Below, piece after piece: positions 1,302-23,975 of a stretch of DNA of 64,000 nucleotides. The position numbers and the translations under genes are program-made. Location: contig CAVSHT010000003.1 in NCBI GenBank assembly GCA_963727895.1, positions 1-64,000 of the forward strand, given 5' to 3'. The stretch comes from an uncultured Methanosarcinaceae archaeon. GTDB lineage: Archaea > Halobacteriota > Methanosarcinia > Methanosarcinales > Methanosarcinaceae. Under the pieces are notes generated by a model. It saw nothing but the letters and a program-made list of their open reading frames with translations, searched no databases and was not told where the DNA came from. Position 1 is the first letter of the stretch; every line of letters starts with the position of its first letter.

Positions 1302-1630
1302 GGGTCCAATTGCAAAAAATCTCCGAATAAGTATATAAACGTATGGATAATGAACAAAAATCAAAATATTCAAAAAGATTATAGAACTATTCCAAATAAT
1401 TGATTAATATATTTAGCTTCATTAAGACCAGAGTAATTTAGATTTTTGACTTGTCCCTTTTTAACCATATTCGTTTTGGCTCCAGTAATCGATTTTATTC
1501 GGATCTCCTAAAGCCTAGTCAACATTTTAGACAAAATGTTTCTATTTAAAGGAATTAGATAGCATGTAACTACTTTTGATTTCCTTTTTATTTTATTATA
1601 TCCCTAGCAAATATTTTTTGCAACAGAACC
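1302..1630 (-). mobile_element. IS6-derived non-autonomous element
   Basis: Both IS6 IRs with the transposase 3' and 5' ends joined through a non-transposase linker. Confidence 0.85.
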
Positions 1631-1934
1631 TGTTGTTTTACGTGCAAAGTACATTAAAGGTAGAGGTAACTATAGTACTATTTAGCATATATCCAATAGA
1701 TATATAATAGGCATCTCATATTTATAACTTAGAAAGTTTTTAGTACTTTCAAACAAATCTATATATATTGCAGATATTTCTCATCTGCAGCTCATAAGAT
1801 TAACTTGGGGACATCTATTGTCGTTGATAACCATTAGGTCTCAAATATCTTACAAGGACAGTAGCTGAAGGAAAATAAAACAGTACTCAAGGTGCATGAT
1901 AGTAAAATGCCTGTATTCAGAATCATGATAATAC

Positions 1935-2687: not shown

Positions 2688-2901
2688 TACAGAACTTATA
2701 GAACACTATTAATACCTTAATTTGACAGAAGTTGTTAATTTTTAAAATTATTTTTTGGAAAAATGAAAATATCAAAAATCAAAGAACATAGTATATAAAT
2801 TACAGTTGTAGGGGAAAACATAAGCATGTGGCGGATTTATTCCTCATAAGATTTATGCTTCTGTCAAATTCGAGATATATACTAATGATACATATAAATA
2901 A

Positions 2902-3180
2902 TTGAATTCCAAAAATGAGCTTATGGCGTTTACAATTATAGAATTTTCAACGTTGATTCTAGCAATTTTAATAGCTTTTGTGTTGTATGTAATCATTAGG
3001 GAAGGCACTCAACTTGCTATGAATGCAGTACTTGGAATTTTAACATTACTTGCAACAAAATTTTTACTTGGGCTTAAAATAACGATTACCTTACTCACCG
3101 TTATAATTTGCGCATTTGGGGGCATTTTCGGAGCAATTTTAATAATCATATTGAACTATTTCAGAATTGGATTTATTTAA
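2902..3180 (+). CDS. Small membrane protein, BofA-like family
   Basis: Hydrophobic segments with N-A-x-L-G and GGIFGAILII motifs; ATG at 2923 is a plausible start. Confidence 0.65.
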   Translation: MNSKNELMAFTIIEFSTLILAILIAFVLYVIIREGTQLAMNAVLGILTLLATKFLLGLKITITLLTVIICAFGGIFGAILIIILNYFRIGFI

Positions 3181-3466
3181 TATTGGGGATGATTTCTAAA
3201 GTTTTAATAGCTTATAGATTCATTGTTGGATACTGATTTTCAATTTCTCTTTTCTCAGTTTCTGTAAAATCATATCGTTAGATGGAATAGCAAAAAACGA
3301 AAGTGATTAAATTCTACGCCTTCTATAGCTTTTCAATTTGCACAAAAGATAATTCTACCAGTAAGCTTGTGAAAGTCAAGTCATAAGCCCCAAAACATAG
3401 TTTTTGACAAATGCATAAATAAAAAAAGTTGCTGAAGAAGAGAAACTTTTCTTTCAAGCTTAAATT

Positions 3467-5002
3467 TTATTTTACTGTAATATAATTAGACATAGTTTTG
3501 GTACCGCTTCCTGCTGCATTTGTTGCTGTTAAGGTCACAGTAAGTTTTCCTTTTTTAATATAAGTATGGAGCGGATTGTGGGTTGTTGATGTAGTACCAT
3601 CTCCAAAATTCCATTTCCATGAAGTTAGGTTATTAGTACTCTTATCAGTAAACTGCACTTTTAGTGGTTTAGTCCCTGATCTTGGAGAGGCGGTAAAGGC
3701 AGCAACTGGTTTTATTTGGTTTGTTAGTTTTAGATAACTTGTTTTTGTTACCTTACTGCTTCCTGCAGCATTAGTTGCTGTAAGAGTTACCGTAAGGCTT
3801 CCTGCTTTAATATACGTGTGAAGTGGGTTATGAGTTGTTGATGTTGTTCCATCTCCAAAACTCCATTTCCATGAAGTTGGGTTGTTAGTACTCTGGTCAG
3901 TAAACTGCACTTTTAATGGTACATTTCCTGAAGTTGGGGACGCAGAGAAAGCAGCTATCGGCTTTTGTGGACTAGTTATCACTGTCCATAGAGTGGCAAC
4001 TGGATAACCAGATCCAGAACTGCCTACTATCTGTCCATCGTTATTGATGGCGCTGGCAATGCTAAATGTGTTAGCAGGGAGTGAGCCAAGATAAGTCATT
4101 ACTCCATTTTGCCATAGGGTAGCATGTGCGGTGTCACGACCAAAGTTACAACCGCCCACTATCTGCCCATTATTATTGATGGAATCGGCAAAACTATAAT
4201 CTCCTCCAGGGAGTATTCCAAGATCAGTTATCACACCATTTTGCCATAGAACGGCATGTTCGACGCCTGAAGCATTATTGCTATCACCTACAATTTGTCC
4301 TTTGTCATTGATGCTATTTGCATGACAAAATGATCCACTAGGGAGTGTTCCAAGATCAGTTATCACACCATTTTGCCATAGAACAGCATGTTCGACGCCT
4401 GAAGCATTATCACTATCTCCCACAATCTGTCCTTTGTTATTGATGCTATTTGCATGACTAATTGACCCTCCAGGGAGTGTACCAAGATCAGTTATTACTC
4501 CATTGTACCACAGAATCGCATGTACTATGCCAGGTGCTTTATCGCCACAGCCCACTATCTGCCCATTGTCATTTATGCTTGATGGATAACAAAATGATCC
4601 ACCAGGGAGTATTCCAAGATCAGTCATTACTCCATTTTGCCATAGGAAACCACGTGAGCCACACACTCCCACTACCTGCCCATTGTTATTGATACAATCA
4701 GCGTAACAATAATCCTCTCCATGAAGTGTTCCAAGATCAGTTATCACACCATTTTGCCATAGAACGGCATGTTCGTCGTCTGATGCATTAAAGCTATAAC
4801 CCACTATCTGTCCTTTGTTATTGATGCCCTCTGCATAACTCCCTGCATAACTCCCGGATGTCAGGTTTTGAAGGTTTTTTATCGATACAGATGCTGCACC
4901 TACAATACTCACTAACATTAAAACAGCCAGAGCAACAATTCCTAACGCTTTTATAAGAGTAAGCTTTCTGGGAGATTTATAACACATAACTTGATACTTC
5001 AT
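3467..5002 (-). CDS. Secreted HAF-repeat protein with two C-terminal PKD domains
   Basis: Signal peptide; about 7 repeats of A-x-x-INN-x-GQIVG...HAVLWQNGVITDLGTL; two SW-x-W-x-FGDG PKD units. Confidence 0.92.
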   Translation of the reverse strand: MKYQVMCYKSPRKLTLIKALGIVALAVLMLVSIVGAASVSIKNLQNLTSGSYAGSYAEGINNKGQIVGYSFNASDDEHAVLWQNGVITDLGTLHGEDYCYADCINNNGQVVGVCGSRGFLWQNGVMTDLGILPGGSFCYPSSINDNGQIVGCGDKAPGIVHAILWYNGVITDLGTLPGGSISHANSINNKGQIVGDSDNASGVEHAVLWQNGVITDLGTLPSGSFCHANSINDKGQIVGDSNNASGVEHAVLWQNGVITDLGILPGGDYSFADSINNNGQIVGGCNFGRDTAHATLWQNGVMTYLGSLPANTFSIASAINNDGQIVGSSGSGYPVATLWTVITSPQKPIAAFSASPTSGNVPLKVQFTDQSTNNPTSWKWSFGDGTTSTTHNPLHTYIKAGSLTVTLTATNAAGSSKVTKTSYLKLTNQIKPVAAFTASPRSGTKPLKVQFTDKSTNNLTSWKWNFGDGTTSTTHNPLHTYIKKGKLTVTLTATNAAGSGTKTMSNYITVK

Positions 5003-5796
5003 TTAAATCCCTCCTCCTTTTTTGTATTTTTCCTTAATCGCCAAAAAAGAGATATAAAATAAGGAACGAAAAATAAAGTTTAATAAATATTGACAAATTG
5101 TAAATTATACTTTCATATACTTATAAAAATCATATAAATAGTATATATATATATAAATATTTTGAAATCTATTTGTAAATTTTATTTTTTGTGATAATAT
5201 TTGATTCATATAAACGATAAATAGGCCTGCAAAAATCCAATCATGAGCCTGAAAATAAGCCTATGAGTTGAAAAGAGAGATTAGGAAAATTAATTTTGGA
5301 AAAATGAGGAAGAAGAGTATACGCAGATCAAAATTTCATCAAACACATTCATTTTTTGCAGTCGAAGCATACCAATTAAAAAATCGGCCAACATCCTGAA
5401 AACTTCGATTGGGATTACATTTCAGATCATTAGCACAATTAGTAATAAAAAATTAATAATTTGTGATACTCTGTTTATATATTGCTCCAATTTTTACCTA
5501 TATTTCAAGTGGAAAAATGAAATTTAGGCAAGCCTTCTAAAATGACAAATTAAACTGAGATTTTCAGGCAATTTTGTTCACTCGTCTGAAATTACCCGCA
5601 TCGCTTGACGTTGCCTATGTGTTTTTGTTAATATATATTCCAAAGACTATAGACAGGATTTTGAAAAACGTTAGTTAGAGACATGATATTTTGAAGGGCT
5701 ATATTTTGTCTTCGATAACCGTATCCGTTAAGAACTACAAAAATAAGAAACACATAGTCAATTCTGATTTACAAAACTGTCATCACAATATCAATA

Positions 5797-6171
5797 ATCA
5801 ATCAATTATTTGGAATTGTTCTATAATATTGAGAAATCTTCTTGAATATTTTAACTTTTGTTCATTATCTATAGGTTTACATGCTTATTCTGATATTTTT
5901 TGCAACGGAACCACTAAGTGGGTATTTTAAGTACCATCTAACATTCAGAGACTTTTTATTATTTTCTGGTCTTGTATTGATTGCATCCAATTGCTAGTGA
6001 AATTAATGGTAAATTTTGGAAATCCCAGAAGATATTAAAAAGTCTCAACATTCAATAAGATAATTTCACCAACAAAGTACTTTCATTTAAAGGAATTAGA
6101 TAGCATATCACTATCTTTGATTTCATTTTTATTTTATTATTTCCCTAACAGATATTTTTTGCAACGGAACC
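5797..6171. mobile_element. Scrambled IS6 remnants (right end, internal piece, left end)
   Basis: TTTTTGCAACGGAACC at about 5912 and 6171, with transposase fragments. Confidence 0.75.
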
Positions 6172-6413
6172 AGGATTTCTACATAGCCGGTAATTTTTTT
6201 ATATTTAACTTTTTTTATTTTTGTACTTTTGTTCCTTTCGCTCGAGAATCAATTAAGAGTGTGTCCAAAAATATTTTTGCTTTATCAACAGTAGAAACAA
6301 TTTTGTACATTTGCGCTCTTCTATAAATCAACAAATTTTTTGACTGAAAATTTTACGTGACTTATATTATCATAAGCTCTCCAAAAATGGTCAATATATT
6401 TATTTTTGAAAAT

Positions 6414-8078
6414 GTGATTGGTGAGGGATCATTATTAAAGGCAGTCTTTCGATTACGGTAGATATTGAGGATTGGTATCACATTCCTTCAGTGTGTGGCT
6501 CTCCATATTCCGTTTATAAGGATGTGAATGAGTTCTTTAAAAATTGGAAAAGAGAATATGACTTCCTAACTGAACCTACAAAAAAAGTACTGGACCTTCT
6601 CGATGAGTTCAATGTAACTGCCACATTCTTTGTAGTTGCAGATATTGAAGAAAACTATCCGGGATTAATCGAGTTAATTGTAGAAAAAGGGCATGAAATT
6701 GCATGTCATGGCCTTCATCACGCCTGTAAAATTGATTCCGAAACAAAGAAAAGGTTAATAAGTGCTGAGGAATTTGAACAGAGGACACTACAAGCTAAAA
6801 AGATTCTGGAAAAAATTAGCGGGGAAAGAATGGTAGGATATAGAGCCCCAAATGCTCTGGTGGGCGGTTGGATGCTCGATTCTTTGGAACATCTTGGATT
6901 CACTTATGACTGCTCAGTAACAGTAAATTCTCTCTATAATAAAACGGATTCTGCCCTCAGCACAGTCTCGACAATACCTTATTATCCTGTGGAGCACGGG
7001 CTTGAGGTAGGTCCCGATAGAAATTTCGTTGAGTTTCCCTGGCCATATTATCAAAACGTAATTAAAGTCCCGTCATGTGGGGGACCAATACTTCGATTCA
7101 TGGGAGCTTCAGTTGTATTAAATGGACTTATTCAAAGCTTAAAACGAGGACATACATTATTTTATTTTCATCCACTCGATATTTCGTGTACTAAATTTCC
7201 ATCCGGCTTTGATACTTAAACATAGTTATATACTATTAGAAAGTATATTTCTTCATGAACTGCCCCAGATGCAATAGTTCCAGTCACAAAAAGAACGGTA
7301 TAGTTGGCGGGCGTCAACGGTACAAATGCTCTGATTGTGGCTATAACTATACAGTAGAGCTAAAATCAACTGCTTTTTCCGCTTTTGTAAAAAGACAGGC
7401 TTTACAACTCTATCTTGAAGGATTGGGCTTTCGTTCAATAGGACGATTTTTAGGGGTGAGTCATGTTTCTGTCCAAAGATGGATAAAGAAATTTGGTCAG
7501 GAGTTAGAGGACCTAAAAAGTGAAAATGAGATATCTATTGTTGAAATGGATGAAATGCACACTTACATCGGTAACAAAAAAAATATTGCTGGATCTGGAT
7601 TGCTGTTGATAGAGTTGGGAAAAAGTTCATCAACTGCTCTTTTGGTAGCAGAGGAACAGAAACTGGAAAACTACTCTGGGAAAAAGTGAAGAAAAAAGAG
7701 ATTGGAGAAGTAATGACAGATCACTGGAGAGCATATGCAGAGTTTCTTCCAGAAAAGAGTCATACTCAATCAAAAGCAGAAACATTTACAGTTGAGGGAT
7801 ATAACAGCATATTGAGGCATTTTCTAGCAAGATTGAGAAGAAAGACAAAGTGTTATACAAAAAGTCTTGAAATGCTAAAGTACTCGGTTATTCTATTGAT
7901 GAAATACAGAAATAAAGAGTTAACTATGTTTAATTAACAATGCCTTCCATCCATTGGGAATCAGAGACCTTTCTATTGGTATTTAAAAGGAAAGCTTATT
8001 GAAAAGAGGATTCGCTATATCCTTAACAAGTTGGAACATGTTAACAAAATATGCCTGCGGGATTATTTAGAGATGTAA
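6414..8078 (+). pseudogene. Polysaccharide deacetylase family gene, interrupted by IS1 and probably 5'-frameshifted
   Basis: SITVDIEDWYH, ATFFVV, HEIACHG, GYRAP and YFHP motifs; the C-terminus (FPSIGNQRPFYW...YLEM*) resumes after the IS at 7945-8078. Confidence 0.88.
7205..7944 (+). mobile_element. IS1-family element; InsA/InsB joined by a -1 frameshift
   Basis: Ends GGCTTTGAT..ACAATGCC; 8-bp TSD TTCCATCC on both sides; zinc ribbon CPRC..CSDC; A8 run at 7576-7583 links to KKYCWIWIAVD. Confidence 0.93.
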
Positions 8079-8336: not shown

Positions 8337-8466
8337 GAAGCCCTCCCAAAACCAACTTTACTCTCAAAATCATAAAATTTTCAGTATTGCTTTCATAATC
8401 CGAAGCTTAAGTAATTATTGCAAATTCACGATCTATATAAGCGATTTTGAGTTTTGGGATAGGCTC
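8337..8466. mobile_element. About 130 bp MITE, GAGCCTATCCCAAAA family, copy 1
   Basis: Imperfect IRs ending TTTTGGGATAGGCTC; related copies at 11693 and 54228. Confidence 0.7.
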
Positions 8467-8488
8467 TATATCTAAACTGAGATTAAAC

Positions 8489-10861
8489 ATGACAGAAATA
8501 AATAGCAATATAGTACATAAAGGACATAATCTTTTAAAAGTTTTAGGAATAACATTGTTGGTACTTGCTTTACTTATGAGTGTCGTAGGTGCGGAACCAT
8601 CTTCAAATATTACGTTTGTAACTACTGGTTCATCATTTTCACCTATTATTGCAGTTACAGGTAATCCTACAATTCAATGGGTATTTAGTGACGGTTCAAC
8701 ATCTAATTCTAAGTCCCCTATTGTAAATTTTGGTTCCGCAGGGAAAAGAGTAAACACTCTAGTAGTAACACCATGGAGTGCAGTAACTGAAATCAATATA
8801 GGTTATGATGGTTCTGATAGTGGAGCAACTCCAGGTGCCAGTACAATAGCAAATTTAGCGCAACAGAATGTAATAGCTGTTAGCGGTTTAGAAAATGTTG
8901 CACCATACCTTCAAATATGGGCTTCAAATTATAATCCAATAACTTCGCTGGATTTCAGTAATTTTGCTGTACTGGATACGATTGAGTGTTTTTCTTGTAG
9001 ATCACTGGCTACTATCAAACTCCATAATGTTCCATCTCTGACAAGGCTTTGTGTCGAACAATCCAATATTTCTTATCTTGATCTCTCAGAAGCTCCTTTT
9101 CTTGCTGATCTTCGTGGAGCATCTCAGAGAAGCTCGACATATACTATAAATTGGGGTACTACAGGAGCTAATATCTGGCATATATGTGTCAGAGATAATC
9201 CGCAGATAACAAGCGCATTCCCATTCAGTCAGTTCCCACTTTTGAGAGACTTTTATAACTGGAATGACGATCAAAGCGGCACTCTTCACCTAACTTCAAC
9301 AAATTTAAAAAGTGTTCTCTCAACCAATAATCATTATAATGATGCTATTTTTTCTGGCTGTTTCCCTGTAAGTAGAAATGGTGTTGTGGAAATTCAAAAT
9401 AATAACCTCAGAAGTTTAGATATTTCCAATGATCCTGGTCTACTTTATTTAAATGCCAGTCTTAATTCTTTAAATCAAACAGCAGTAGATGAAATACTTC
9501 AAATAATGGATTCCTATAATACTAGCAGCGGATCTTTAGATTTAACTGGAAATGCTGCGCCGTCAATTATAGGAGTAGCACATGTAAATAATTTAATAGC
9601 TAGAGATTGGGAAGTCAAAACATCATCAAAAAATAATCCACCGGTCGCAAATTTTACAAGCAATATTACTTTTGAAACGGTGCCATTAGTAGTTCAATTT
9701 AATGATACAAGTATAAACAATCCAACTACATGGTTATGGGATTTTGGGGATGGAACTTATTCAACTAAGGAATCTCCAGAGCACATTTATCCTTATCCGG
9801 GTAATTACACCGTAACTTTTACGGTAAGGAATTCAAATGGTTTCGATTCTAAAGTTGACGTAATAACCGTTTTAGAACAACCAGTTTTTCCTGTAGCAAA
9901 TTTCAGTATCAATGTCATTGAGAGTTATGTTCCGCTAGATGTGCAATTTAACGACTTGTCGGAAAATACAGAGGATAGATACTGGAACTTTGGAGATGGA
10001 ACTGGTTCAACTGAGATGGATCCAATACATACATATTCAATAGCAGGAACTTATTATGTCAACCTAACTGTAAGCAACGAAAATGGAACTGCCTCAAAAA
10101 CTGCTACAATAAATGTACTTACACCTATTAGCTCAAGCGGTGGGAGTAGTGGAGGAAGTAGTCATAGCAGTTCCAGTGGTGGCGGTGGAGGTGGTTCTCC
10201 TGAACCTCAGAGTAATGTCCAAGTAAAGGAACTTTCACAGGCTGTTATTACAAATGGGAAACCTGTAAAATTTGATTTTACAAAGAATGCAACCTGTGTT
10301 GTGTATGTGAGTTTTGACGCAAAAAAGACCTTTGGGAAGACCACAACCATTGCTGAACAGCTTAAAGGAAAATCTTCTCTGGTTTCAATACTTTATTCGG
10401 GTGAAATATATAAGTACTTCAATCTATGGATTGGAAATGGAGGGATTGCAACCTCAAAGAACATAGCAAACCCAGTTGTTTGTTTCAAGGTTGAAAAAGC
10501 TTGGATAAAGGATAAAAAGATCGATCAGGATTCTATTATTCTTAACATGTACAGCGATAAAAAATGGGAGCAATTTCCAGTAAACCTGTCAGGTGAAGAT
10601 AATAAATTCTTGTATTTCACAGCCAAAACCTCAGGATTTTCTTTATTTGCAATAACTGGTACAGAGAAACTATCTGAAGAAAATGTAAAGGGAATACAGC
10701 TTGCATCAAATAAAACAATTAATAATACAACGTACAAAGAACCTAATACAACATATAAAGAACCGCAAAATCAACAAAAAGAAATTCTGAGCACACCAAG
10801 CTTTGGGGTATATTATGGAATAGTTAGCCTGTTTGCAGCATTTCTGTATAAAAGAAAGTAA
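8489..10861 (+). CDS. Cell-surface protein: LRR-like region, two PKD domains, PGF-pre-PGF domain, C-terminal sorting signal
   Basis: Signal peptide; L-x-x-L-D-L-S repeats; WDFGDG; Ser/Gly linker then SPEPQSNVQVKE; TPSFG plus TM helix plus KRK. Confidence 0.9.
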   Translation: MTEINSNIVHKGHNLLKVLGITLLVLALLMSVVGAEPSSNITFVTTGSSFSPIIAVTGNPTIQWVFSDGSTSNSKSPIVNFGSAGKRVNTLVVTPWSAVTEINIGYDGSDSGATPGASTIANLAQQNVIAVSGLENVAPYLQIWASNYNPITSLDFSNFAVLDTIECFSCRSLATIKLHNVPSLTRLCVEQSNISYLDLSEAPFLADLRGASQRSSTYTINWGTTGANIWHICVRDNPQITSAFPFSQFPLLRDFYNWNDDQSGTLHLTSTNLKSVLSTNNHYNDAIFSGCFPVSRNGVVEIQNNNLRSLDISNDPGLLYLNASLNSLNQTAVDEILQIMDSYNTSSGSLDLTGNAAPSIIGVAHVNNLIARDWEVKTSSKNNPPVANFTSNITFETVPLVVQFNDTSINNPTTWLWDFGDGTYSTKESPEHIYPYPGNYTVTFTVRNSNGFDSKVDVITVLEQPVFPVANFSINVIESYVPLDVQFNDLSENTEDRYWNFGDGTGSTEMDPIHTYSIAGTYYVNLTVSNENGTASKTATINVLTPISSSGGSSGGSSHSSSSGGGGGGSPEPQSNVQVKELSQAVITNGKPVKFDFTKNATCVVYVSFDAKKTFGKTTTIAEQLKGKSSLVSILYSGEIYKYFNLWIGNGGIATSKNIANPVVCFKVEKAWIKDKKIDQDSIILNMYSDKKWEQFPVNLSGEDNKFLYFTAKTSGFSLFAITGTEKLSEENVKGIQLASNKTINNTTYKEPNTTYKEPQNQQKEILSTPSFGVYYGIVSLFAAFLYKRK

Positions 10862-12198: not shown

Positions 12199-12465
12199 TT
12201 TTGCTTTCAACTAATAGAAGATAATTTTCTGCATAGTACAATTTTTGGTGATCATGTAACCTTTGAAGCTCCATGTACCAAAGGCCTATAATTGTATTAA
12301 TTTCTAAAATCGGCCTAAATTTAATTGAAATGAAATTTAAAAATCTATAAATCTATCATACTCTGCTACTGTGAGGACCCATTTTTACTAAAAAAATATA
12401 TATTTATATCATTATGTTTATGCAAACATAACGATTAATCCATAAAAAGTCTTGCAGGTATATCT

Positions 12466-13563
12466 ATGCGTGGTAAAATAGGTACGATATTACTTCTTTC
12501 TATTTTGATTCTGGCTGTTGCATCCTGCGGATGCACAGAAAATATGAATCAACAAACTGCCCAGAACGCTAGCACTACACATATTACTGACATGCTGGAT
12601 AGGCAGTTGACTGTGCCGGCAAATATCTCTTCAGTTGTAGCCACGTCTCCGCCCTCAACTATTCTAGTTTACATGCTTGCTCCGGAAAAACTTGCAGGCT
12701 GGAATTCCAAAAACAATATCACTAAACCTTTTATGGATAAAAATTACTCAAATTTGCCTGTAATAGGTGGCTGGTTTGGAACACAGACCGGGAGCTATGA
12801 AACCATAATCAATATGCATCCTAACATTGTAATTGAAGGGTACACCACAGATGGGGAAATCCATGAAGCTATAGAGCGCAGACAGGAGGATTTTGGAAGC
12901 ATTCCTGTTGTGGGAATCGATGACTCTATTATATTCGTAAACCAGTCTGATGCTACAATACAGTATGTGGGAAAACTGCTTAATTGTGAAAACCAGGCGA
13001 AAAAACTGATAGAATTCCGCAGTTCAATCCTTAACGAGATAAATGACACTGTAAAAAGCATTCCAGAAGACCAGAAAGTACGCGTTTATTATGCCGAAGG
13101 TCCAAAGGGATTAATGACTGATCCTTCAGGTTCTCAGCACTCTCAGGTTATTGATATCTGTGGTGGTATCAATGTTGCAGACTGTCAGCTTACACCAGGA
13201 AATGGAATGACACAGGTTTCAATAGAACAGATCCTAAAGTGGAATCCTCAGGTAATTCTCACATCAAATCCACAATTCTATTCAACAGTGTACTCTGACT
13301 CTACCTGGGCAAGTATAGATGCTGTAAAAAACAAACGAATATATCTTGCTCCTCAAAATCCTTTTTGCTGGATTGACAGACCACAGGGTCCTCATCTCAT
13401 AATCGGAACTGCCTGGACTGCAAAAATGCTGTATCCAGACCGCTTCAAAGATATGGATCTTCCCAATCTGACCCGTGAGTTCTACTCGGAATTCTTCCAC
13501 TATAACCTCACAGATAAAGAACTGAATTCACTACTTAACTCTTCAACAGAGGCTAAGACGTGA
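12466..13563 (+). CDS. Class III (FecB/BtuF/MolA-like) ABC substrate-binding lipoprotein
   Basis: Lipobox-like ASCGC; ITDMLDRQLTVP; VSIEQILKWNPQVI; WASIDAVKNKRIY; PFCWIDRP. Confidence 0.9.
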   Translation: MRGKIGTILLLSILILAVASCGCTENMNQQTAQNASTTHITDMLDRQLTVPANISSVVATSPPSTILVYMLAPEKLAGWNSKNNITKPFMDKNYSNLPVIGGWFGTQTGSYETIINMHPNIVIEGYTTDGEIHEAIERRQEDFGSIPVVGIDDSIIFVNQSDATIQYVGKLLNCENQAKKLIEFRSSILNEINDTVKSIPEDQKVRVYYAEGPKGLMTDPSGSQHSQVIDICGGINVADCQLTPGNGMTQVSIEQILKWNPQVILTSNPQFYSTVYSDSTWASIDAVKNKRIYLAPQNPFCWIDRPQGPHLIIGTAWTAKMLYPDRFKDMDLPNLTREFYSEFFHYNLTDKELNSLLNSSTEAKT

Positions 13564-14183
13564 GTGAGAAAGACAAATCACCGGATTTTCCCTATATTGC
13601 AGAGAATATCTTTGCTCCCATTTACCCTATAATAGCCACTAATATTGTCAAAAAAAGCGGAATAGAAGAAGGAATATGTCTTGACCTGGGATGCGGAATA
13701 GCATCCCTGGGAATCTCTGTTGCGGAAATCACAGAGATGCAGGTATATGGTATTGATATCTCAACTAAAATGTGCAGGCTTTCAAAAAACAAAGCTTTGA
13801 GCCACGGTCTTTCAGGTAAAGTTGTTCCTGTACAGTCTGATGTGCACCTGCTTCCTTTCAGGAATAACTGTGCAGACCTAATAGTAAGCCGAGGATCCGT
13901 ATTTTTCTGGAATGACCTGCCTGTTGCCTTTAAGGAAATCTCTCGTGTGCTTGCTCCAGGTGGGCAGGCATGGGTAGGAGGTGGTTTCGGCACAAAAGAG
14001 TTGAGAGCACAGATTTCAGAACAGATGGTTGAAATAGATCCGGATTGGCATACCAATTCAAAAGAACGTCTCAGTCAAAAAAACCTTCAGGCAATACAGG
14101 AAGCTGGAAGGCAGACTGAGATTCCCTGCCATGTAGTGCAGGATGACTCGGGGTTTTGGATGGTATTAAGCAAGGAAGGTTAA
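13560..14183 (+). CDS. Class I SAM-dependent methyltransferase
   Basis: CLDLGCG, DLIVSRGSVFFW, RVLAPGG; overlaps the upstream stop codon. Confidence 0.92.
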   Translation: MSEKDKSPDFPYIAENIFAPIYPIIATNIVKKSGIEEGICLDLGCGIASLGISVAEITEMQVYGIDISTKMCRLSKNKALSHGLSGKVVPVQSDVHLLPFRNNCADLIVSRGSVFFWNDLPVAFKEISRVLAPGGQAWVGGGFGTKELRAQISEQMVEIDPDWHTNSKERLSQKNLQAIQEAGRQTEIPCHVVQDDSGFWMVLSKEG

Positions 14184-14185
14184 AA

Positions 14186-15958
14186 ATGAAGTGCAATGTG
14201 TGCGAATTCAGGTGTGAACTCGATGAATACAGTAAAGGAAGATGCGGGAACTACTTATGTAAAGGTGATACTATCATCCAAGACCCTGATATCGGATACC
14301 TTGGAGCATATCCTGTTTCTATAGAGACCATTCCCTTACTTCATTACTATCCCTCAGGTAAATTCCTTCAGGTTTTCAGTATTGGATGCAATTTTCAGTG
14401 TTCCGGCTGTGTGGCTCGCTTGCTAGCATCAGGGAAATCGCTTGATATTTCTGTCCTTACCCCATCTCAGGTAGTGGAAAGAGCAGTGCAGCAGAAGTGT
14501 CTGGGCGTAGTTTCCACACTCAATGAACCTGCTGCAAACTATTATCTGTTCAAAGATCTTGCGATAAAGGCAAAAGAAAGAGGTTTACTGGTAGGCTGTT
14601 CCACAAACTGCTATTTCACAGATGAAACCCTGGAAGAGCTTGGAAAGTTTGTAGATTTCATGAATGTAGGAATAAAAGGTTATTCTGATAAGAGCTACAT
14701 AAATTGCGGAGTTCCGTCCTCTGAACCTGTTTTCCGTAATATTTCTCGACTTTTTGATATGGGTGTGCATGTTGAAACATCAGTCGTTTACTTAAAGGGA
14801 AATGAAGACGATGTGATAAATGTTGTCAAAGCATTGTCTGATATTTCCCCTACAATTCCTGTTCAGGTAATGAGATTTATTCCTTTTGGGGATGCTCCGA
14901 TTGAACTTGAACCCTCTGTAGGAGAGGCAGAGAGCCTGTGTACCGCTCTGCGTAAATATGTAGATTATGTTTATCTCTTCAATTCTCCAGGTACGGAATC
15001 ATTAAATACGTACTGTCCCGAGTGTGGTAGTCTTCTTACAGAAAGGGAGTTTTACGGGCCTATGGGTGCCAAGCCTTTAAAACCCTGGATAAATTACTCC
15101 TGCACTTGCGGGAAAAGTATCCCGGTCAAAGGAACAACTGCGACTGAAATCTTTAACGAAGAAGGTTTTATGGGTGGTTACAGGATAAGTCGAGCTTTCA
15201 GTATGGTTCATGCAATACTTATATGTCTGGGCATACTGGATGATCACAGGTTAATTGAAATCTGGGGGAAAGTCTCCAATCCCGAAACCCTAAGGCAAAT
15301 ACACCAGGTAGTACAACAGCCATATTCTTATCTTGAGTTCATCAGGCTTATTGCTGAAAAAGCAAATGTACCGGAAAAAGGTGAAGAACTTATTTCATAT
15401 ATCCGCGAACGTCTGGAAATTGTCGAATCTCTTGCAGAGGAAAATAGTGGTCATAAAGTTTATTATTGTATGGGCTCTCCTCTTTTTGCTCTGAATGCTG
15501 GAAGAATGGAAAATAATCTTGTGGCGTTTTCTGGGGGAGTAAGTATTAATAAACAGATTCAAAAAGAAGGCAAACCAGGTGTAAATGTTTCTCCCTTGTT
15601 TATAAATGAGCAGAATCCGAAAACTATTTTTATTTCAGGTTTTCTTTCCCGTCCTCTCGATGAGTTCTATGACCTTTGCCAGCAATACAGTATATGTGCA
15701 GATGCGGTAAAAGAGCATCGGATCTATGAAATTCCTCCTTCTTGGGATTTCGGAAATCCACGCTGGATACTTGGACTTATGTACATAGCCAACAAATTAA
15801 ATCCAGAAAACTCAGCAATTGACCTGAAAAAGGAAGCAAATGAATTTTATCTACGGTTTTATGGCATACCGTTTGAAGAAGTAAAACCTAATAGATCTTT
15901 TCACAGACCTTCTTCCGGTATCTGGCCCAAAAACGTAGTGAGGTATTCTGATGCATGA
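14186..15958 (+). CDS. Radical SAM protein (AmmeMemoRadiSam/PFL-activase-like N-terminus) fused to a binding-protein-like C-terminal domain
   Basis: CNVCEFRC...GRCG; GCNFQCSGC (CxxxCxxC); TYCPECG; the C-terminus KVYY...AVKEHRIY..WDFGNPRWILGLMYIANKL resembles the upstream SBP. Confidence 0.85.
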   Translation: MKCNVCEFRCELDEYSKGRCGNYLCKGDTIIQDPDIGYLGAYPVSIETIPLLHYYPSGKFLQVFSIGCNFQCSGCVARLLASGKSLDISVLTPSQVVERAVQQKCLGVVSTLNEPAANYYLFKDLAIKAKERGLLVGCSTNCYFTDETLEELGKFVDFMNVGIKGYSDKSYINCGVPSSEPVFRNISRLFDMGVHVETSVVYLKGNEDDVINVVKALSDISPTIPVQVMRFIPFGDAPIELEPSVGEAESLCTALRKYVDYVYLFNSPGTESLNTYCPECGSLLTEREFYGPMGAKPLKPWINYSCTCGKSIPVKGTTATEIFNEEGFMGGYRISRAFSMVHAILICLGILDDHRLIEIWGKVSNPETLRQIHQVVQQPYSYLEFIRLIAEKANVPEKGEELISYIRERLEIVESLAEENSGHKVYYCMGSPLFALNAGRMENNLVAFSGGVSINKQIQKEGKPGVNVSPLFINEQNPKTIFISGFLSRPLDEFYDLCQQYSICADAVKEHRIYEIPPSWDFGNPRWILGLMYIANKLNPENSAIDLKKEANEFYLRFYGIPFEEVKPNRSFHRPSSGIWPKNVVRYSDA

Positions 15959-16970
15959 TTACAGATGTAGTCGCATTACTCTGGTATATCTGTTACCCTT
16001 TGTATTACTTATAATATCTCTTTTTATATGAAGATACCAGACTCCTCTATCAGATGTTTTAAGTGAGAGTGGAAGAGCTTTCTTATCTCTTTTTTTTGGT
16101 ACTCCTGCTTCAGTTTCCGATCAACATACTGTACTTTTCAATGTAAGGTTGCCAAGGATACTCGCAGCTTTACTGGTGGGATCAGCTCTTTCCATAGCTG
16201 GAGCTTCTTTTCAGGGAATATTTCGCAATCCTCTTGTGTCTCCTGATATACTTGGAGTGGGAGCTGGAGCTGGTTTTGGAGCATGCCTTGCAATCCTGCT
16301 CTGGAATAGTTATATGTTTATACAATTGATGGCTTTTGCCTTTGGACTCTTAGCGATGTTTATTGCTATAAGTATGGGTAAAGCCAGCAAAGGTACTGGA
16401 ACTCTGGTATTTGTGCTTTCAGGAATTATTGTTGGTTCGATTTTCACGGCTCTTACGTCACTGGCAAAATACGTGGCAGATCCTTATGATCAACTTCCTG
16501 CAATCGTTTTCTGGCTTATGGGAAGTCTTTCCACTGTAAGGTATACTGATTTACTCTACATATTATTGCCAATATTTATTGGCACTCTTGTACTGCTTCT
16601 TCTCAGGTGGCGTATCAACATTCTGTCTCTAGGGGACGAGGAAGCTAAAGCTCTTGGAATGGATGTGGAAAAAATGCGCCTGATCATAATTGTTTGTGCA
16701 ACCCTTGTAACTTCAGCAGCAGTCAGTATCAGTGGTGTCATTGGCTGGGTAGGACTGGTTGTACCCCATATCTCAAGAATGATGGTAGGTCCCAATTATA
16801 ACCGCCTTTTGCCTATGAGCATGGTTATTGGAGCATCGTTTATGTTGATTGTGGATGACCTTTCAAGGACTATTGCAGCTACAGAAATTCCCCTGGGAAT
16901 CCTTACTGCTCTGGTAGGAGCTCCACTGTTTGCATATCTTGTTAAGAAGGGGAGGATGGGATGGAACTGA
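15951..16970 (+). pseudogene. FecCD/BtuC-family ABC permease with a premature stop
   Basis: ATG 15951 is in frame with the 16149 ORF; TGA at 16029-16031 in SLFI*RY (expected G); RLPR, FRNPLVSPD and GWVGLVVPH motifs. Confidence 0.85.
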
Positions 16971-17733
16971 TGTTGGAAGTAGAGTCCCTTTCTTTCTCTT
17001 ATGGAAACAAGCCAGTCTTTGAAAATGTATCGTTTTCACTAAAAAAGGCGAGATCATGTGTATTCTGGGCCCAAATGGAGCAGGAAAATCTACACTTATC
17101 AAATGTGTTGCAGGAATTCTCAAATCTACTGTCGGATCTATCTATATTCAAGGAGAAGATACAGCTTCTCTTGGTGTAAGAGGTATTGCTAGGCATATAG
17201 GATATGTACCACAGCAGAATGAAGTGGTTTTTCCATTTACCGTATTGGATTTTGTAGTTATGGGACGTGCTCCGCATCTTTCCATGTTTGAATCCCCTGG
17301 CGCCGACGATATTAAACTTGCAAAAGAATCGCTTGCAATGGTAGGAATTTCCAATCTTGCAGAAAGACCGGTTTCCAACCTCAGTGGAGGACAGAGCCAA
17401 ATGGTGCTTATTGCTAGAGCTCTTGTCCAAAAGCCTTCTTTGCTTTTGCTGGATGAACCAACTTCTCACCTTGATTTTGGAAACCAGATCCTTGTGCTGG
17501 AAACTGTCAGAAAACTTGCTTCACTTGGGATGTCTATTATAATGAATACTCATATGCCAGACCATGCTTTTCTTTTAGGTGACAAGGCTGCAGCACTAGC
17601 TGGAGGTAAACTGGTTGCGGTCGGAAAGGTTGAAACTGTAGTGACCAACAAAACGATGTCTTTACTATATGGAGTAAATGTAGCTGTCAGGGAAATTGAA
17701 GATATGAAAAGAAAAGTGTGTTTACCTTTTTAA
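16961..17733 (+). pseudogene. ABC transporter ATPase, frameshifted at an A-run near 17041-17046
   Basis: N-terminus LEVESLSFSYG in one frame; GPNGAGKST, LSGGQ and LLLDEPT in another. Confidence 0.85.
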
Positions 17734-17967
17734 AGTGAATAAACCAAGAATTAATTTTGTTCTTTTTGGTTCTGCCGAATTCATAATAGCTCTAATAAAG
17801 AATCATAATAAACAGGTGTTCTAAGAATTAGAAAATCAGCTAAGAATTTGAAAATCAATTTTGAGGATAAAAGTTTATTTTTATGCAAGAATTCAGTTGA
17901 TTAACCTGTTATAAAAGTTAAACTTAAGGCCATAAGTTAAGGAAATGTAAAGTTAAGGAGATGTAGT

Positions 17968-18759
17968 ATGATAGATTTATTTGAACTATACTTTTACGAA
18001 GATTGTCCATATCAGGATGAAAGTGTTGAATTGCTAGGAATAAGAGGGAAAGGCACCTTAAAAATTACTTCAAGAGAAGCAGGAGTTTGCGCCTGTGCAG
18101 AGGATTTGGCTGACTATTATGAGAAAAAAGGTGTAAAAGTTCTCAAATTTCTTGAAGACGGCAGCAAGTTCAATCCAGGAGACAAAATATTTGAGGCTGA
18201 AGGCGACTTGAAACTCTTGTTCAGGTTGTGGAGGGTTTCTCAGACATTTCTTTCGCTTATGTGCGCCATTGCCGGAAAAACCGCTTCCATTGTGAAAGCA
18301 GGAAGAAAAGAAAACTCTGACCTTATTATTGCAACGACAAGAAAGACTCATCCAGGAACCAGAAAATTTGAGCTTAAAGCTGTCCGAGCAGGTGGAGGAG
18401 ATATTCACAGAAACTCCCTTAGCGATTCCATCCAGATTAGCCAGAACCATTTCGAAGTGGCTGGTGAATTGGGAAAACTCCGGGCTATGAAAAAAATAGA
18501 AATCGAACCAAGATCGCGAAAAGAAGCTCTTAGATATGCAAAAGATGCAGATATAATGCTCCTGGATCACATATCCCCCGAGGAATTGAAAAAGGTCGGG
18601 CCAGAACTTAAACAACTCAATTCCAAACTTGAGCTCGCAGTTGGGGGAATTGAAGCAACGAAGATTCTTGAATACGCTCATTTTGTGGATATTATTGTAA
18701 TAAGTGCTCCCTATTATGCAAAACCTCTTGATTTAACAACAAAAATAGAAAAACTCTAA
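17968..18759 (+). CDS. ModD-like / quinolinate phosphoribosyltransferase-family protein
   Basis: EDCPYQD, TTRKTHPG, AVRAGGG..HR..LSDSI, MLLDH. Confidence 0.8.
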   Translation: MIDLFELYFYEDCPYQDESVELLGIRGKGTLKITSREAGVCACAEDLADYYEKKGVKVLKFLEDGSKFNPGDKIFEAEGDLKLLFRLWRVSQTFLSLMCAIAGKTASIVKAGRKENSDLIIATTRKTHPGTRKFELKAVRAGGGDIHRNSLSDSIQISQNHFEVAGELGKLRAMKKIEIEPRSRKEALRYAKDADIMLLDHISPEELKKVGPELKQLNSKLELAVGGIEATKILEYAHFVDIIVISAPYYAKPLDLTTKIEKL

Positions 18760-19074: not shown

Positions 19075-19245
19075 ACGCTCATGAGTCGTTGACTCATGCA
19101 TGAAGCATGAAAAACTTTCATTATCTTATTTATCCTTCTTAACTTGTTATGGGCAGAGAAGGCTGTTTTCTATTTGTGACTTGATCTCGTTCCTGAAACT
19201 AAGCCATCTTACTCTCGAATGTATGAATGCTGTCTTAGAACGCGT

Positions 19246-20069
19246 ATAAGAAATAAAAATGAAATCAAAGATAGTGATATGCTATCTAATTCCTTTAAAT
19301 GGAAGCACTTTGTTGGTGAAATTATCTTATTGAATGTTAGATGGTACTTAAAATACCCACTTAGTTATAGAAATTTAAAGGAAATGATGACAGAAAGAGG
19401 GGTAATAGTTAACCATACGACCATTATGAGATGGGTACATCAATATTCACCTGAAATCGAAAAGAAGGTCAGAAGGCATTTAAGACCAACAAACGACTCT
19501 TGGAGAGTTGATGAAACTTACATCAGAGTTAAAGGTGAATGGAAATATTTTTACCGAGCAGTTGACTCAAATGGAGATACAATTGATTTCATGTTAAGTG
19601 CAAAACGAGACCAAAAAGCAGCGAATAGATTCTTCAAAAAAGCTTTGAACTCTAATCATAATCAAATTCCAAGAGTAATCACAGTTGACAAAAATCCAGC
19701 TTATCCACCTGCTATAGATAAACTATAAAATGACAAAATACTACCTAGAAACACAGGCATTCGACAAATCAAATATTTGAATAACATTATAGAACAAGAT
19801 CATAGATTCATTAAATGGGTAGTTAATCCAATGTTAGGATTTCAGTCTTTTCGATCTGCTAATAAAACTTTAAAAGGAATTGAAGCGATGAATATGATTA
19901 AAAAAGGACAAGTCAAGAATCTAAATTACTCTGGTTTTAATGAAGCTAAATATATTAATCAATTATTTGGAATAGTTCTATAATATTGATACATCTTATT
20001 GAATATTTTAACTTTTGTTTATTGATTATGGATTTACATGCTTATTCTGAGATTTTTTGCAACGGAACC
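19246..20069 (+). pseudogene. IS6 transposase (19279-19983) with a nonsense codon, plus right IR
   Basis: DKL*ND instead of DKLKND; right IR ends at 20069. Confidence 0.9.
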
Positions 20070-20336: not shown

Positions 20337-22764
20337 TCAACCCCTCCGGTCCATTATCTCATAATACTTCACTTTCATAAAATCGGTTATAACAAAAGTC
20401 GCAAGGGCATAGATCCAGACAAAACTCGCCAGTTTCCATCCTATGGGAGATATGTAGAATCCATACACTGCAACGAGTGTTGCCAACACTTTTGTAACTA
20501 CCGCAGCCCAAAAAAGAAGCTTTCCCGGAGGGGGGGACCAGAAGTGCCCCCTGTTGCGGGCAACGAATATGGTCAGGTGTCCGGCTATTGCAAGTTTCAG
20601 GAAAATAAAAGACTGAAGCACATCTGGACTGAGGTAAAGAATTCTGGCTCCTATATAGTATATTACAAACGAAGCAATCACACCTATAATTCCCAGAAAT
20701 GTGGATATCCTCAGGACTTCACGCATGTTCCATTCTTCTGGTTCTTGGGAATAATGTACATTATCATATGCAATAGCCATTATAGGAGCATCGTTGAAAA
20801 GAGCGAGCAAAACGATCATTACAGCAGTTACGGGATAAAAATTAAACACAATTATTGTAGTGGCAATAAAGAAAAGCACCCGGACAGTCTCGGCAATTCT
20901 ATAGATGGAATAGGTCTTCATCCTCTGGAATATCTTTCGACTTTCCTTAATTGCATTAATAATGACCGAGAGACCTGAAATTGTAAACACAATATCTGCA
21001 GCGGATTTTGCAGCGTCAGTAGCCCCAGCAACAGCAATTCCTGCATCAGCCATTTTCAGGGCAGGGACGTCGTTGACTCCATCACCTGTCATGCCGACGA
21101 TATGTTCTTTTTTCTGAAGGAGTTCAACGATCTTGTATTTGTGCTCGGGAAAGACCTGGGCAAAACCGTCTGCCTTCTCTACAATTTCTTGGGCTTCAGA
21201 ATCAGATTTTCCTACAAAATCGTCAGCTGTAATTATGTCCGTGCCTAGGCCTACCTGGCTTGCTATCTCTCTGGCAATGGCTATGTGATCTCCAGTTACC
21301 ATTTTCACTTCTACTTTAAGGGAATTTGCTGTCTTTATGGTCTCAGCGGAATCTTCATGCGGTGGGTCATAAAGTCCCAGAAGCCCTGCAAACCTGTATT
21401 TTCCCTTCTCTTCCACACACACCCCCAGGGCACGATATCCCTTTGAAGCCAGAGAATCTACTTTTTCTTTTATTTGCTGTCCTATTTCTTCTTTATCACT
21501 TGACATGTCCAGAATAACCTGAGGAGCGCCTTTGGCAACTTTTAACTTTCCTTCAGGCCCTTCAACCGTAGCCTCGGTATGCTTTATGACAGGGTCAAAT
21601 GGTGTGAATTTCTTGACTGTATAAGTTTCTATTTTTTTTAAGGGATTCTGTGTCTTTTGCCTTCTGGAGGATTGCATTATCAATCGGGTCATTGTCCTCT
21701 TCCCTTGAAGCCAGAGAACCATAGATCAGAAGGTCATTTTCTTTAAAGTTTCCGAAAGGCACGAATTCAGACAATTTTATTTTGTTTTGGGTGATTGTGC
21801 CGGTTTTATCTGAACATAGAACGTCCATCCCGGCCATTTCTTCTATAGAGACCAGTTTACTGACAATGGCTCCTTTTTTTGCGAGTTCAGTGGCTCCCAC
21901 TGCCATTGAGACGGACATTACAGCAGGAAGAGCTGCCGGAATTGCAGCTACGACCAGCACAAGAGCAAACTGGAGGGTTTCCAGAAAAGGAGTGTGCCTG
22001 AAAAGCTCTACCAGTAAAACAACCGCAACAATACAGCCTGCAAGGACGATTAGGTAGTTTCCGATTTTAAGGACTGCTTGTTGGAAGTGGCTCCTGGTCT
22101 TAATCTCGGCTATCAGTTTGGTTGTCTCTCCAAAATAGGTATTCATGCCCGTAGCCACAACCAGTCCGTTCATCTCCCCTTTCTGGATAACGGACCCTGA
22201 ATAAGCAATGCCATCAGATTTTTTCTCTACAGGCAGGGATTCTCCTGTAAGGGCTGATTCATCTACCTGCAAATATTCTCCTTCGAGGAGCTTAAGGTCG
22301 GCAGGCACAATATCTCCTGAGCGTATGCGGACTACGTCTCCTGGAATCAGTTCCCGTGCAGGTATTTGAGTCCATTGTCCTCCTCTGAGTACCTTGGCAT
22401 TCAGGGCCAGTTTTTGCTTAAGGAGTTCAATGGCATTGTCAGCCTTGTATTCCTGCCAGAACCCCACAACTCCGTTTAGGACCAGGAGCAAGGATATTAT
22501 AACCAGATCTTCCCATTTATGTATAAGTCCTGAAATTACAGCTGCGATTTCGATCATCCATGGAATGGGCCCCCAAAAATAACTTAAAAATTTTTTAAGA
22601 GGGTTGATCTTTTTTTCTTCAAGTTCATTAAAACCATACTGCTTAAGCCGGTTCTCGGCCTCCAATGAAGAAAGTCCCTTGTTACTAGAATCAAGTTTTT
22701 TCAGGACTTCATTTGCAGGCAAATCCTTTATTTCATCAATTTTGAGCTTCACATTTTCTTCCAT
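20337..22764 (-). pseudogene. Plasma-membrane-type H+-exporting P-type ATPase, frameshifted
   Basis: DESALTGES, IPAALP, CSDKTGT, KGAP, MVTGD and MTGDGVND motifs; frame switch at the T8 run 21632-21639. Confidence 0.92.
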
Positions 22765-23975
22765 AAATAGACCCCCGCCCAATCCGTGATTTCTCTCTAA
22801 TCAAAAATGCTCAAAATACTGACGATTTCAGAAAGACACTGAATCATATCAATTATTGAATTTTACTTTAGGTTTATTTTTCCCATCAACCTCTTCCTTT
22901 GAACCTTTCCTTTTCTCGGCTTCGTTTTTAAGAGCAGATTTTTGAATAATTTTTAAAAAGCTGATGTATTTTTTGCAATTGTAAACCTATATCATAAACA
23001 AAATCAAATTCCCATTTCTAACATAGAAGCGGACAAAATAAAAATATATGACATAATTTTATTAATTAGAGAGTGCAGAGGGTCACGAATACCCCGCTCT
23101 TGCAGGACTCTAGACGAAGAACTAATAGAAGATCTTCAAATCAGGGGGTACAAGGGTAGAGAAGGATGTTACTATCCCAAATTTGACAACAGCATAAATA
23201 TTATAATAAAAAAATGTGCTTCATGCTTCTGTTTTCTTTATATAATTGTAATTTCCATGCGATGTTCTTTGATTTTTGATATTTATCATGTTACCTAACG
23301 GTAATATGTCGATGTAATGTGTTTTTCTTAATAAAATACCATATCAATTAATGGAATCTGTCAAATTCGGGTTACTATCATAGTTCATTCGCAACCACAG
23401 GAAGGAGCCGATGACGGGGCAGACAATGAAGGGAAAATAAAGAAGTTGATAGATGAGTTTGTTAAAAGACATGAGCAGCTTAACAAACTGGCAGAACAGA
23501 TCAAGAATACAAAAAGGAATTCATGCGTCTTCGGTTAAGTGAGGAATCGTGACAAATTGCGTCAATTTCTTTTACATTTGTAAAATATGTTTATAGATCC
23601 TGAGCTGGAACAGGATATCGATTTGATGTAGATAAACCAAGATTTAAGGCAGGCTTCTAGTGCAAAATCGATAGCTTTCAGGCAAGAAAATTCCTTAACC
23701 GATGACCAATGAAAAGGAATTATATCATAGGCTGAATAGCTACGATTTCGTAGTTCAACTATGTAATTCCATTGACAATTACGTGATCCTTCACTGCCTT
23801 TTACCTGCAGATTAAAGGAAAAACACGCTGTAGATGGATAAAATGGACTCCTAATAAAATAGGATAGAGAGATTTTTGGGAAAGCGACCCGAATGAAGTA
23901 ACATATATCTTGTATCGAAGAAAAATAGTAGATATAACTATAATTATAAAAATCGGGATGAAATGGGGAGTGTTC

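Follow-up and report, generated by a model that had tools for sequence, protein, structure and literature searches.

A radical SAM enzyme carrying half a binding protein, encoded with a MolA-like importer behind a ModE operator motif in an uncultured Methanosarcinaceae archaeon

Operon layout and architecture of the fusion protein

We analyzed a 64-kb stretch of DNA (hereafter the window; positions 1 to 64,000, forward strand, of contig CAVSHT010000003.1 in GenBank assembly GCA_963727895.1) from an uncultured Methanosarcinaceae archaeon, in which six co-oriented + strand genes at 12466–18759 encode a substrate-binding protein (SBP), a methyltransferase, a radical S-adenosylmethionine (SAM) enzyme fused to part of a second binding protein, a FecCD-type permease, an ATP-binding cassette (ABC) ATPase and a ModD-like protein. 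An initial annotation, made from the sequence alone, had described the first five genes as overlapping or abutting, and the gene calls, with starts at 15951 and 16961, bear this out. The methyltransferase gene overlaps the SBP gene by 4 nt, the fusion ATG at 14186 lies 2 nt past the methyltransferase stop, and the permease and ATPase ATG codons (15951 and 16961) give overlaps of 8 nt with the fusion gene and 10 nt with the permease gene, respectively; the sixth, ModD-like gene follows after a gap of 234 nt. The fusion gene probably starts at ATG 14186 (MKCNVCE...) rather than at the listed TTG 14156, because all 14 aligned relatives begin at that Met. The features of the operon, with positions given in the window, are as follows:

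12403..12409, + strand: TATA-like box TTTATAT, read from the sequence, directly before the operator
12411..12432, + strand: perfect match to the ModE operator motif, ATTATGTTTATGCAAACATAAC (RTTATGT-N8-RCATAAY), 33 nt 5' of the SBP start codon
12466..13563, + strand: class III (Peripla_BP_2) substrate-binding lipoprotein, MolA-like (Pfam E 1.6e-22; lipoprotein-like N-terminus)
13560..14183, + strand: class I SAM-dependent methyltransferase (Methyltransf_11, E 5.3e-20; PDB 3dlc, E 2.9e-51)
14186..15958, + strand: radical SAM enzyme fused to half an SBP (Radical_SAM, E 1.9e-14; half SBP by profile, model and Foldseek)
15951..16970, + strand: FecCD-type permease with an in-frame TGA at 16029–16031 (FecCD, E 1.9e-84 on 16149–16970)
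16961..17733, + strand: ABC ATPase, frameshifted by 1 nt within an A6G2 run at ∼17040–17047 (ABC_tran, E 2.6e-29)
17968..18759, + strand: ModD-like paralogue of quinolinate phosphoribosyltransferase (QRPTase_C/N), a lineage-specific neighbor outside the conserved unit

The fusion protein comprises 590 residues, of which approximately the first 330 form an AmrS/PflA-like radical SAM core (PF04055, 54.6 bits vs. a gathering threshold of 29.5). Its CxxxCxxC motif (C68/C72/C75, counted from the Met at 14186) was invariant in 62 sequences, an N-terminal set of cysteines (C3/C6/C10/C20) is likewise invariant, and a CxxC...CxC ribbon is nearly so. No signal peptide was seen at the N-terminus, which is occupied by the radical SAM domain. 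The motif, the extra Cys clusters and the missing signal peptide had all been noted in the initial annotation, and both the alignment of relatives and the conservation across the 62 sequences agree with it. The core is nearest to TIGR04337, the AmmeMemoRadiSam radical SAM enzyme family (residues 10–301 aligned), and, by Foldseek, to the pyruvate formate-lyase activase PflA-AE (TMt 0.72–0.74). With these two enzymes it shares the radical SAM core, the N-terminal Cys motif and the Cys ribbon, but it differs from the TIGR04337 enzyme in its score (89.2 bits vs. a cut-off of 220) and in an extra half SBP of 260 residues, which in sequence comparisons appears as a feature unique to the fusion family.

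The C-terminus, which had been likened to the C-lobe of the operon's own SBP, does model as a binding-protein fold. In a BLASTP comparison with that SBP, residues ∼396–569 of the fusion were 27% identical over 187 residues (E 3e-8). Taken as a single sequence, the fused lobe matched Pfam Peripla_BP_2 at E 6.6e-4 (19.6 bits vs. a gathering threshold of 27.5), and a profile of 15 family sequences searched against the PDB matched 4pag at E 5.6e-15 (4pag residues 116–316 of 324), 4hn9 at 2.7e-14, 4ovk at 6.1e-14, Helicobacter pylori CeuE at 1.3e-8 and MolA at 5.3e-8, with the alignments always falling on the second half of the solved SBPs (target residues ∼116–320). An AlphaFold (AF2) model built from the 62 sequences (pLDDT 89.9, pTM 0.89) placed an alpha/beta lobe behind a helical linker, and Foldseek matched this model to class III SBPs at E 2e-10 to 5e-8 (4ovk, E 2.1e-10). 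The profile and Foldseek results agree in giving the fused domain the sequence character and C-lobe fold of a class III SBP, without the two lobes and the secretion signal of a complete one. Residues ∼330–575 (DNA 15173–15958) are accordingly assigned to a helical linker and, behind it, to a class III SBP's backbone helix and C-lobe.

When the C-terminal 261 residues were searched against 1.84 billion representatives, 273 matches were obtained at E ≤1e-3, including 14 at E ≤1e-30. The top matches were fusion proteins of ∼570–604 residues or fragments, and ordinary SBPs appeared from ∼E 5e-14 on. Literature searches, including ones by the accessions of family members, turned up neither the fusion nor the methyltransferase–fusion–importer unit, in keeping with the earlier statement that no characterized pathway of this kind was known. 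The accessible portions of a Methanococcus maripaludis Mo-source transcriptome paper and of a preprint using random barcode transposon sequencing (RB-TnSeq) do not mention the system.

Conservation of the gene unit and of its ModE operator

Full-length relatives of the fusion (45–87% identity; best 120 of 500 matches) were found in the archaeal genera Methanosarcina, Methanolobus, Methanothrix, Methanococcoides, Methanotorris, Methanococcus and Methanoculleus, and among bacteria in Desulfobacula and Desulfatiglandales. Its Atlas cluster has 855 members, of which 62% are archaeal. The family also occurs in Desulfosarcina and Pelotomaculum, and its presence in these two genera and in Desulfobacula led us to drop F430, or any other cofactor confined to methanogens, as a candidate ligand.

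A relative of the fusion was encoded in 249 of 284 candidate stretches from species genomes, and the best 79 loci (given here as L numbers) were kept for neighborhood counts, made by tblastn of the six window proteins. Of the 77 loci with >700 bp of upstream DNA, 74 had a methyltransferase gene immediately 5' of the fusion in the same orientation (the exceptions being L039, L057, and L078). Where at least 6 kb was available on each side (36 loci), the SBP, the permease and the ATPase were each found in 31, all three in 30 and none in 4. ModD followed the transporter in two of the 79 loci (L006 and L009) and in 0 of the 36 fully flanked ones. Because the linkage counts of the methyltransferase and the transporter are high and ModD occurs in only 2 of 79 loci, the conserved unit comprises five genes, built around the methyltransferase and the fusion, and ModD is a local addition. 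The initial annotation had made its proposal depend on co-occurrence of all six genes: the methyltransferase, the fusion and the class III transporter do co-occur widely, in methanogens and sulfate reducers, but ModD falls outside this pattern. The phosphoribosyl step that it had assigned to the system is, therefore, not part of the conserved unit, and ModD was dropped as a core member.

The ModD-like gene itself scored 134 bits against TIGR01334 (cut-off 178.85) and 134.8 bits against nadC (cut-off 198.4), in both cases below the cut-off. A true NadC is encoded elsewhere in the genome (contig C3, 89757–90557; 310.9 bits), and a second, broken ModD copy lies behind modA-modB-modC on contig C6. 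ModD is an occasional extra that, in this genome, flags Mo transport loci; a ModD gene presumably also stands beside molABC.

The slot after the ATPase gene varies among loci. In the sister Methanosarcina loci L007 (11739–13040), L010, L019, L056, and L063 it holds a gene for a secreted protein of ∼430 residues with one S-layer (PF07752) domain, and in L016 (4969–6234) an S-layer-domain protein comes first, directly behind the ModE site; such proteins could serve as surface capture proteins for the ligand. A side cluster comprising a second class III SBP, an O-methyltransferase, a DUF364/DUF4213 protein and a further methyltransferase was seen in L043 (13211–16052), L048, L053, L068, and L078 (3550–5629), the hosts of this cluster being Methanoculleus, Methanolinea, and Desulfosarcina. 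Loci of the Desulfobacula type (L027 at 1454–7134, L038, L041, L057, and L074) carry, all of it upstream of the methyltransferase–fusion pair, a second set of SBP, permease and ATPase genes, then a lobe-less radical SAM paralogue of ∼340–360 residues and a protein of ∼400 residues with no Pfam match and, except in L057, a cytidine-deaminase-like gene next. In L018 (1–9755), from an uncultured member of the Methanosarcinales, five class III SBP genes stand in tandem together with two copies of the fusion.

The operator motif upstream of the SBP gene corresponds to the sequence RTTATGT-N8-RCATAAY that ModE of Methanosarcina acetivorans binds in electrophoretic mobility shift assays; in the accessible portions of that report, its sites precede vnf, anf, and mod genes, fmd, two “Fe ABC transporters” and ma1204 (PMC12327845). 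The distance of 33 nt between operator and start codon in the window equals the 33 bp given there (Table 1) for both ma1200-1197 and ma1234-1224. Perfect matches to the motif number one in the 64-kb window, at 12411–12432, and six in the 3.67-Mb genome, where they precede the window operon, a duplicate of it on contig C13, a FecCD/ATPase/NifV cluster by vnf, modB, and fmdB, with one more in the intergenic region that vnfH shares with a fusion paralogue; all six thus stand before Mo-related genes. In a control with 150 permuted half-sites of the same composition, the mean was 0.45 genome matches and none reached six.

With up to one mismatch allowed, the motif occurs 26 times in the 79 loci (1.08 Mb), and 23 of these matches are at the operon start. 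These came from 23 of the 24 loci whose fusion is at least 50% identical (L001–L021, L056, L060, and L063); the remaining one, L013, has no upstream DNA. An alignment of 11 upstream regions revealed a footprint, with an invariant TATA–operator block between diverging flanks, and the TTTATAT box is a likely promoter element. A perfect operator in a promoter position, kept in 23 loci, is what we would look for in a member of the ModE regulon, and we regard it as strong, if indirect, evidence that ModE would repress the operon when Mo is sufficient.

Including the window copy, four matches to the fusion were found in this genome, the others being a 95% identical copy on contig C13, a 67% identical paralogue on contig C11 and an AmrS-like gene with 29% identity. 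On C13 (178495–183820; L087) the whole operon is duplicated at 93–95% identity; this copy lacks ModD, has a perfect ModE site of its own and lies close to the end of the contig, with fragments of IS1-type transposases on its flanks. The C11 paralogue (642 residues; TIGR04337, 101.2 bits) is divergent from vnfH in a V-nitrogenase cluster (C11, 16832–36338; L084 and L085) with the order vnfH-I1-I2-D-G-K-E-N-X, in which I1 and I2 are PII genes and X is nifX-like, and which also holds genes for a membrane protein, class III SBPs, a FecCD permease, an ATPase and a split NifV. The scores of VnfD, VnfG, and VnfK exceed their curated cut-offs. Two perfect and two one-mismatch ModE sites lie in this cluster, one of the perfect sites being located 224 bp before the Met of the paralogue, in the vnfH/paralogue intergenic region.

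Of two M. acetivorans family members, one has 68% identity to the C11 paralogue and the same subfamily insertion, and context points to AAM04623 being MA1204. In the parts of PMC12327845 that are accessible, ma1204 is a “radical SAM protein” gene of unknown role, divergent from anfH and with a site at 235 bp that is shifted by ModE; within the supplement text, a figure legend is the only place that names it. By our reading MA1204 belongs to the same fusion family as the window protein, and the C11 paralogue matches it in being divergent from a nitrogenase H gene and in the position of its operator (224 vs. 235 bp). MA1204 differs from the window protein in standing alone, without the methyltransferase and the transporter in the same operon, and its binding-protein lobe is not remarked on in those parts of the paper.

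Candidate ligand, proposed role and alternatives

Searched against the PDB with phmmer, the window SBP matched 4pag (6.3e-56), MolA (HI_1472; 1.5e-27, SBP residues 40–345 aligned to MolA 4–320 of 326) and 4ovk (2.1e-24), followed at lower significance by YiuA iron-siderophore binders (2.8e-16) and BtuF (3.3e-8). The title of 4pag, which is also the best PDB match of the fused lobe, names no ligand. MolA belongs to MolBC-A (HI1470/71 with HI_1472), the molybdate/tungstate type II importer of Haemophilus influenzae, and the window operon resembles that system in its combination of a class III SBP, a FecCD-type permease and an ATPase, with a match to MolA over the full length and, by profile, a match of the fused lobe to MolA as well. 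The window operon differs in adding a radical SAM enzyme and a methyltransferase, neither of which, to our knowledge, is found at MolBC-A.

ModA/ModB-like genes, a further pointer to Mo or W, occur within 8 kb of the system in 4 of the 79 loci, representing four lineages (L012, L061, L066, and L075). In L012 (5390–7399) the operon opens with a single open reading frame (ORF) of 669 residues in which a ModA/WtpA-like domain (SBP_bac_11, E 8.6e-61) is combined with the class III SBP, and a one-mismatch ModE site lies upstream of it at 5182. Loci L066 and L075 also encode a regulator with helix-turn-helix (HTH) and PBP_like domains, which we take to resemble the tungstate-responsive TunR. With a conserved ModE operator in front of the operon, the ligands listed in the initial annotation (Mo, W, V, Fe chelates, corrinoids, and F430) are narrowed toward those of a molybdenum-starvation response.

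We give a probability of roughly 0.5 to the reading that this is a ModE-controlled operon, derepressed when Mo is scarce, that couples a MolA-like class III (type II) importer to a cytoplasmic methyltransferase/radical SAM module. What the data show is the domain architecture, the fold and the gene linkage, along with an operator that is both present and conserved; ModE repression at this site, the ligand and the chemistry are inferred. In Mo-replete cells, ModE would occupy the operator abutting the TATA-like box and block transcription. When Mo runs short, the importer would take in a Mo or W (or V) species, either as an oxyanion or, more likely, in chelated form; the half binding protein would hold this ligand at the radical SAM active site, where radical SAM and methyl-transfer chemistry would convert it, making the metal usable for cofactor synthesis. 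More tentatively, and with a good deal of doubt, we suggest that the radical SAM–half-SBP enzyme and the methyltransferase constitute an undescribed cytoplasmic step of Mo/W/V supply in anoxic habitats that frees or tailors an imported metal species, such as a chelate or a thiolated form, for the assembly of cofactors, under ModE control in Methanosarcina and with a dedicated paralogue by the alternative nitrogenase genes.

An analogy of logic, and of logic only, exists with ChuW and HutW, the anaerobic heme-degrading radical SAM methyltransferases of heme uptake operons, where a class III importer is likewise encoded with cytoplasmic radical SAM and methyl-transfer processing that requires no oxygen. 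ChuW and HutW are, however, single, HemN-like enzymes in an iron/heme context, whereas here two proteins of other families are found in a Mo-responsive one.

Several observations weigh against a ModE-controlled Mo/W/V importer with a processing module, or at least against free molybdate as its ligand. The operator was found at the operon start in none of the other 55 of the 79 loci and is confined to Methanosarcinaceae, and the ModE-like gene of this genome (C6, 34978–35223) scored 58.9 bits, below its cut-off of 98.5. Nor does the operator tell whether Mo/W/V or Fe is taken up when Mo is short, because the M. acetivorans ModE regulon, as far as the accessible text describes it, also holds putative iron importers: the FecCD-type clusters ma1234-1224 and ma1200-1197 are ModE-regulated and are read by the authors as importing iron for alternative nitrogenases (PMC12327845). 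In the NCBIfam comparison, the permease and the ATPase rank nearest to corrinoid, F420-0 and heme systems, all below cut-off. TonB-dependent receptors in three bacterial loci (L066, L075, and L078) suit a bulky chelate better than free molybdate, and CobW-type GTPases in two of them (L066 and L078), together with DUF364 genes beside extra methyltransferases in 6 of the 79 loci (L024, L043, L048, L053, L068, and L078), point away from a free oxyanion; all three features suit a chelated metal. Finally, the permease and ATPase genes of the window are interrupted, and the 95% identical second copy of the operon is also broken.

Iron acquisition during Mo shortage is an unlikely but serious competitor, in which the importer would take in an iron chelate or heme for alternative nitrogenases and Fe-S assembly and the enzyme pair would free the iron anaerobically, along the lines of ChuW and HutW. 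Besides the published reading of the two M. acetivorans clusters, the YiuA matches of the SBP, the TonB-dependent receptors and the NCBIfam matches to heme-type families for the ATPase and to IsdE for the SBP (all below cut-off) are consistent with it. The SBP nevertheless matches every iron binder far less closely than it does 4pag and MolA, the system repeatedly has ModA/ModB-like and ModD genes as neighbors, and the radical SAM core is AmrS/PflA-like and not HemN-like as in ChuW. Salvage and remodeling of a corrinoid or other tetrapyrrole we consider very improbable. It would explain why the best NCBIfam rows are archaeal BtuC for the permease (2e-63) and a corrinoid ABC ATPase (3.8e-52), both below cut-off, with BtuF among the matches of the SBP (3.5e-8), yet the scores fall far from the BtuCDF cut-offs (permease 215 vs. 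461, ATPase 177.7 vs. 537, SBP 32.9 vs. 234), the SBP matches BtuF much more weakly than 4pag, and the ModE operator points elsewhere. An Rfam scan of the window and nine bacterial loci (143 kb) returned no match at all, and hence no cobalamin riboswitch.

The enzyme pair could also act in synthesis rather than in processing, helping to build a small metal chelator that the half SBP recognizes and that the importer retrieves in its metal-loaded form, which we regard as distinctly unlikely. For opine metallophores, synthesis and uptake are usually encoded in one operon, and the DUF364, O-methyltransferase and further methyltransferase genes beside the system would suit such a pathway. According to the accessible part of PMC12930334, methyl-SAM is converted to an azetidine amino acid by one enzyme of the DUF364 family. 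No exporter is conserved in the unit, however, the DUF364 set is absent from most loci, this window included, and in 30 of the 36 fully flanked loci importer genes are linked to the pair. That linkage, together with the small-molecule type of the methyltransferase, also argues against a protein maturase of the PflA type, which would modify, e.g., a Mo/W enzyme and use the half SBP as a docking domain: the nearest solved fold is indeed pyruvate formate-lyase activase, and a weak match to TIGR04317 (tungsten cofactor oxidoreductase radical SAM maturase; 33.6 bits vs. a cut-off of 380) points the same way, but the loci hold no conserved candidate for a protein substrate, and we consider this quite improbable.

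The preferred reading, a Mo-scarcity operon that imports and then processes a Mo, W, or V species, bears on the acquisition of these metals by strict anaerobes in sulfidic settings, which is poorly understood, as are the roles of the “iron-type” transporters and of the radical SAM gene in the methanogen ModE regulon. What is new here is a conserved ModE operator and a Mo context for a radical SAM enzyme that carries the importer's half binding protein, by which a widespread, uncharacterized enzyme pair of methanogens and sulfate reducers is now tied to the ModE regulon. If the reading is correct, it would add a processing step to the supply of trace metals for the enzymes of methanogenesis and nitrogenases and would provide a rare case in which an enzyme has taken over a binding-protein lobe to hold its substrate. 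M. acetivorans, whose orthologous operon encodes the protein AAM07874, offers a genetically tractable host in which the Mo link can be tested.

State of this operon copy and its surroundings

Codon 27 of the permease gene is TGA (16029–16031), where relatives and the C13 copy read Gly (GGA/GGG), and the FecCD match (PF01032, 283.8 bits) covers the part after this stop rather than an intact full-length protein. The first 27 residues of the ATPase are encoded in a different frame from the rest; relatives have ...FSLKKGEIMCILGPNG in a single frame. Neither defect had been noted in the initial annotation. The C13 operon has an in-frame TGA in its fusion gene and a split permease. Because of the permease nonsense codon and the ATPase frameshift, this copy of the operon may be inactive. 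Among the public contigs of four runs compared with 15900–17300, none spans position 16029, where the TGA lies, or the frameshift site at ∼17040. The ATPase frameshift falls in the same homopolymer run in the window and C13 copies, and because both share it, a systematic assembly error is possible. As a whole, the broken genes fit either real decay in an insertion-sequence-rich region or homopolymer assembly errors. Other genes of this genome, which was scored 84% complete, are also split, namely NifV and ModC elsewhere and, in the window, a P-type cation ATPase (20337–22782, − strand) that is divided into two ORFs whose overlap contains a T8 run, reflecting either a frameshift or a homopolymer assembly error.

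The window has a low coding density, with 29 ORFs of at least 200 residues in 64 kb. Two large PKD-domain surface proteins are encoded upstream of the operon, at 3467–5002 (− strand) and 8447–10861 (+ strand), and a truncated IS240/IS6-type transposase ORF (19219–19728, + strand), covering positions 2–77 of the 139 in the DDE_Tnp_IS240 profile, lies just 3' of ModD.

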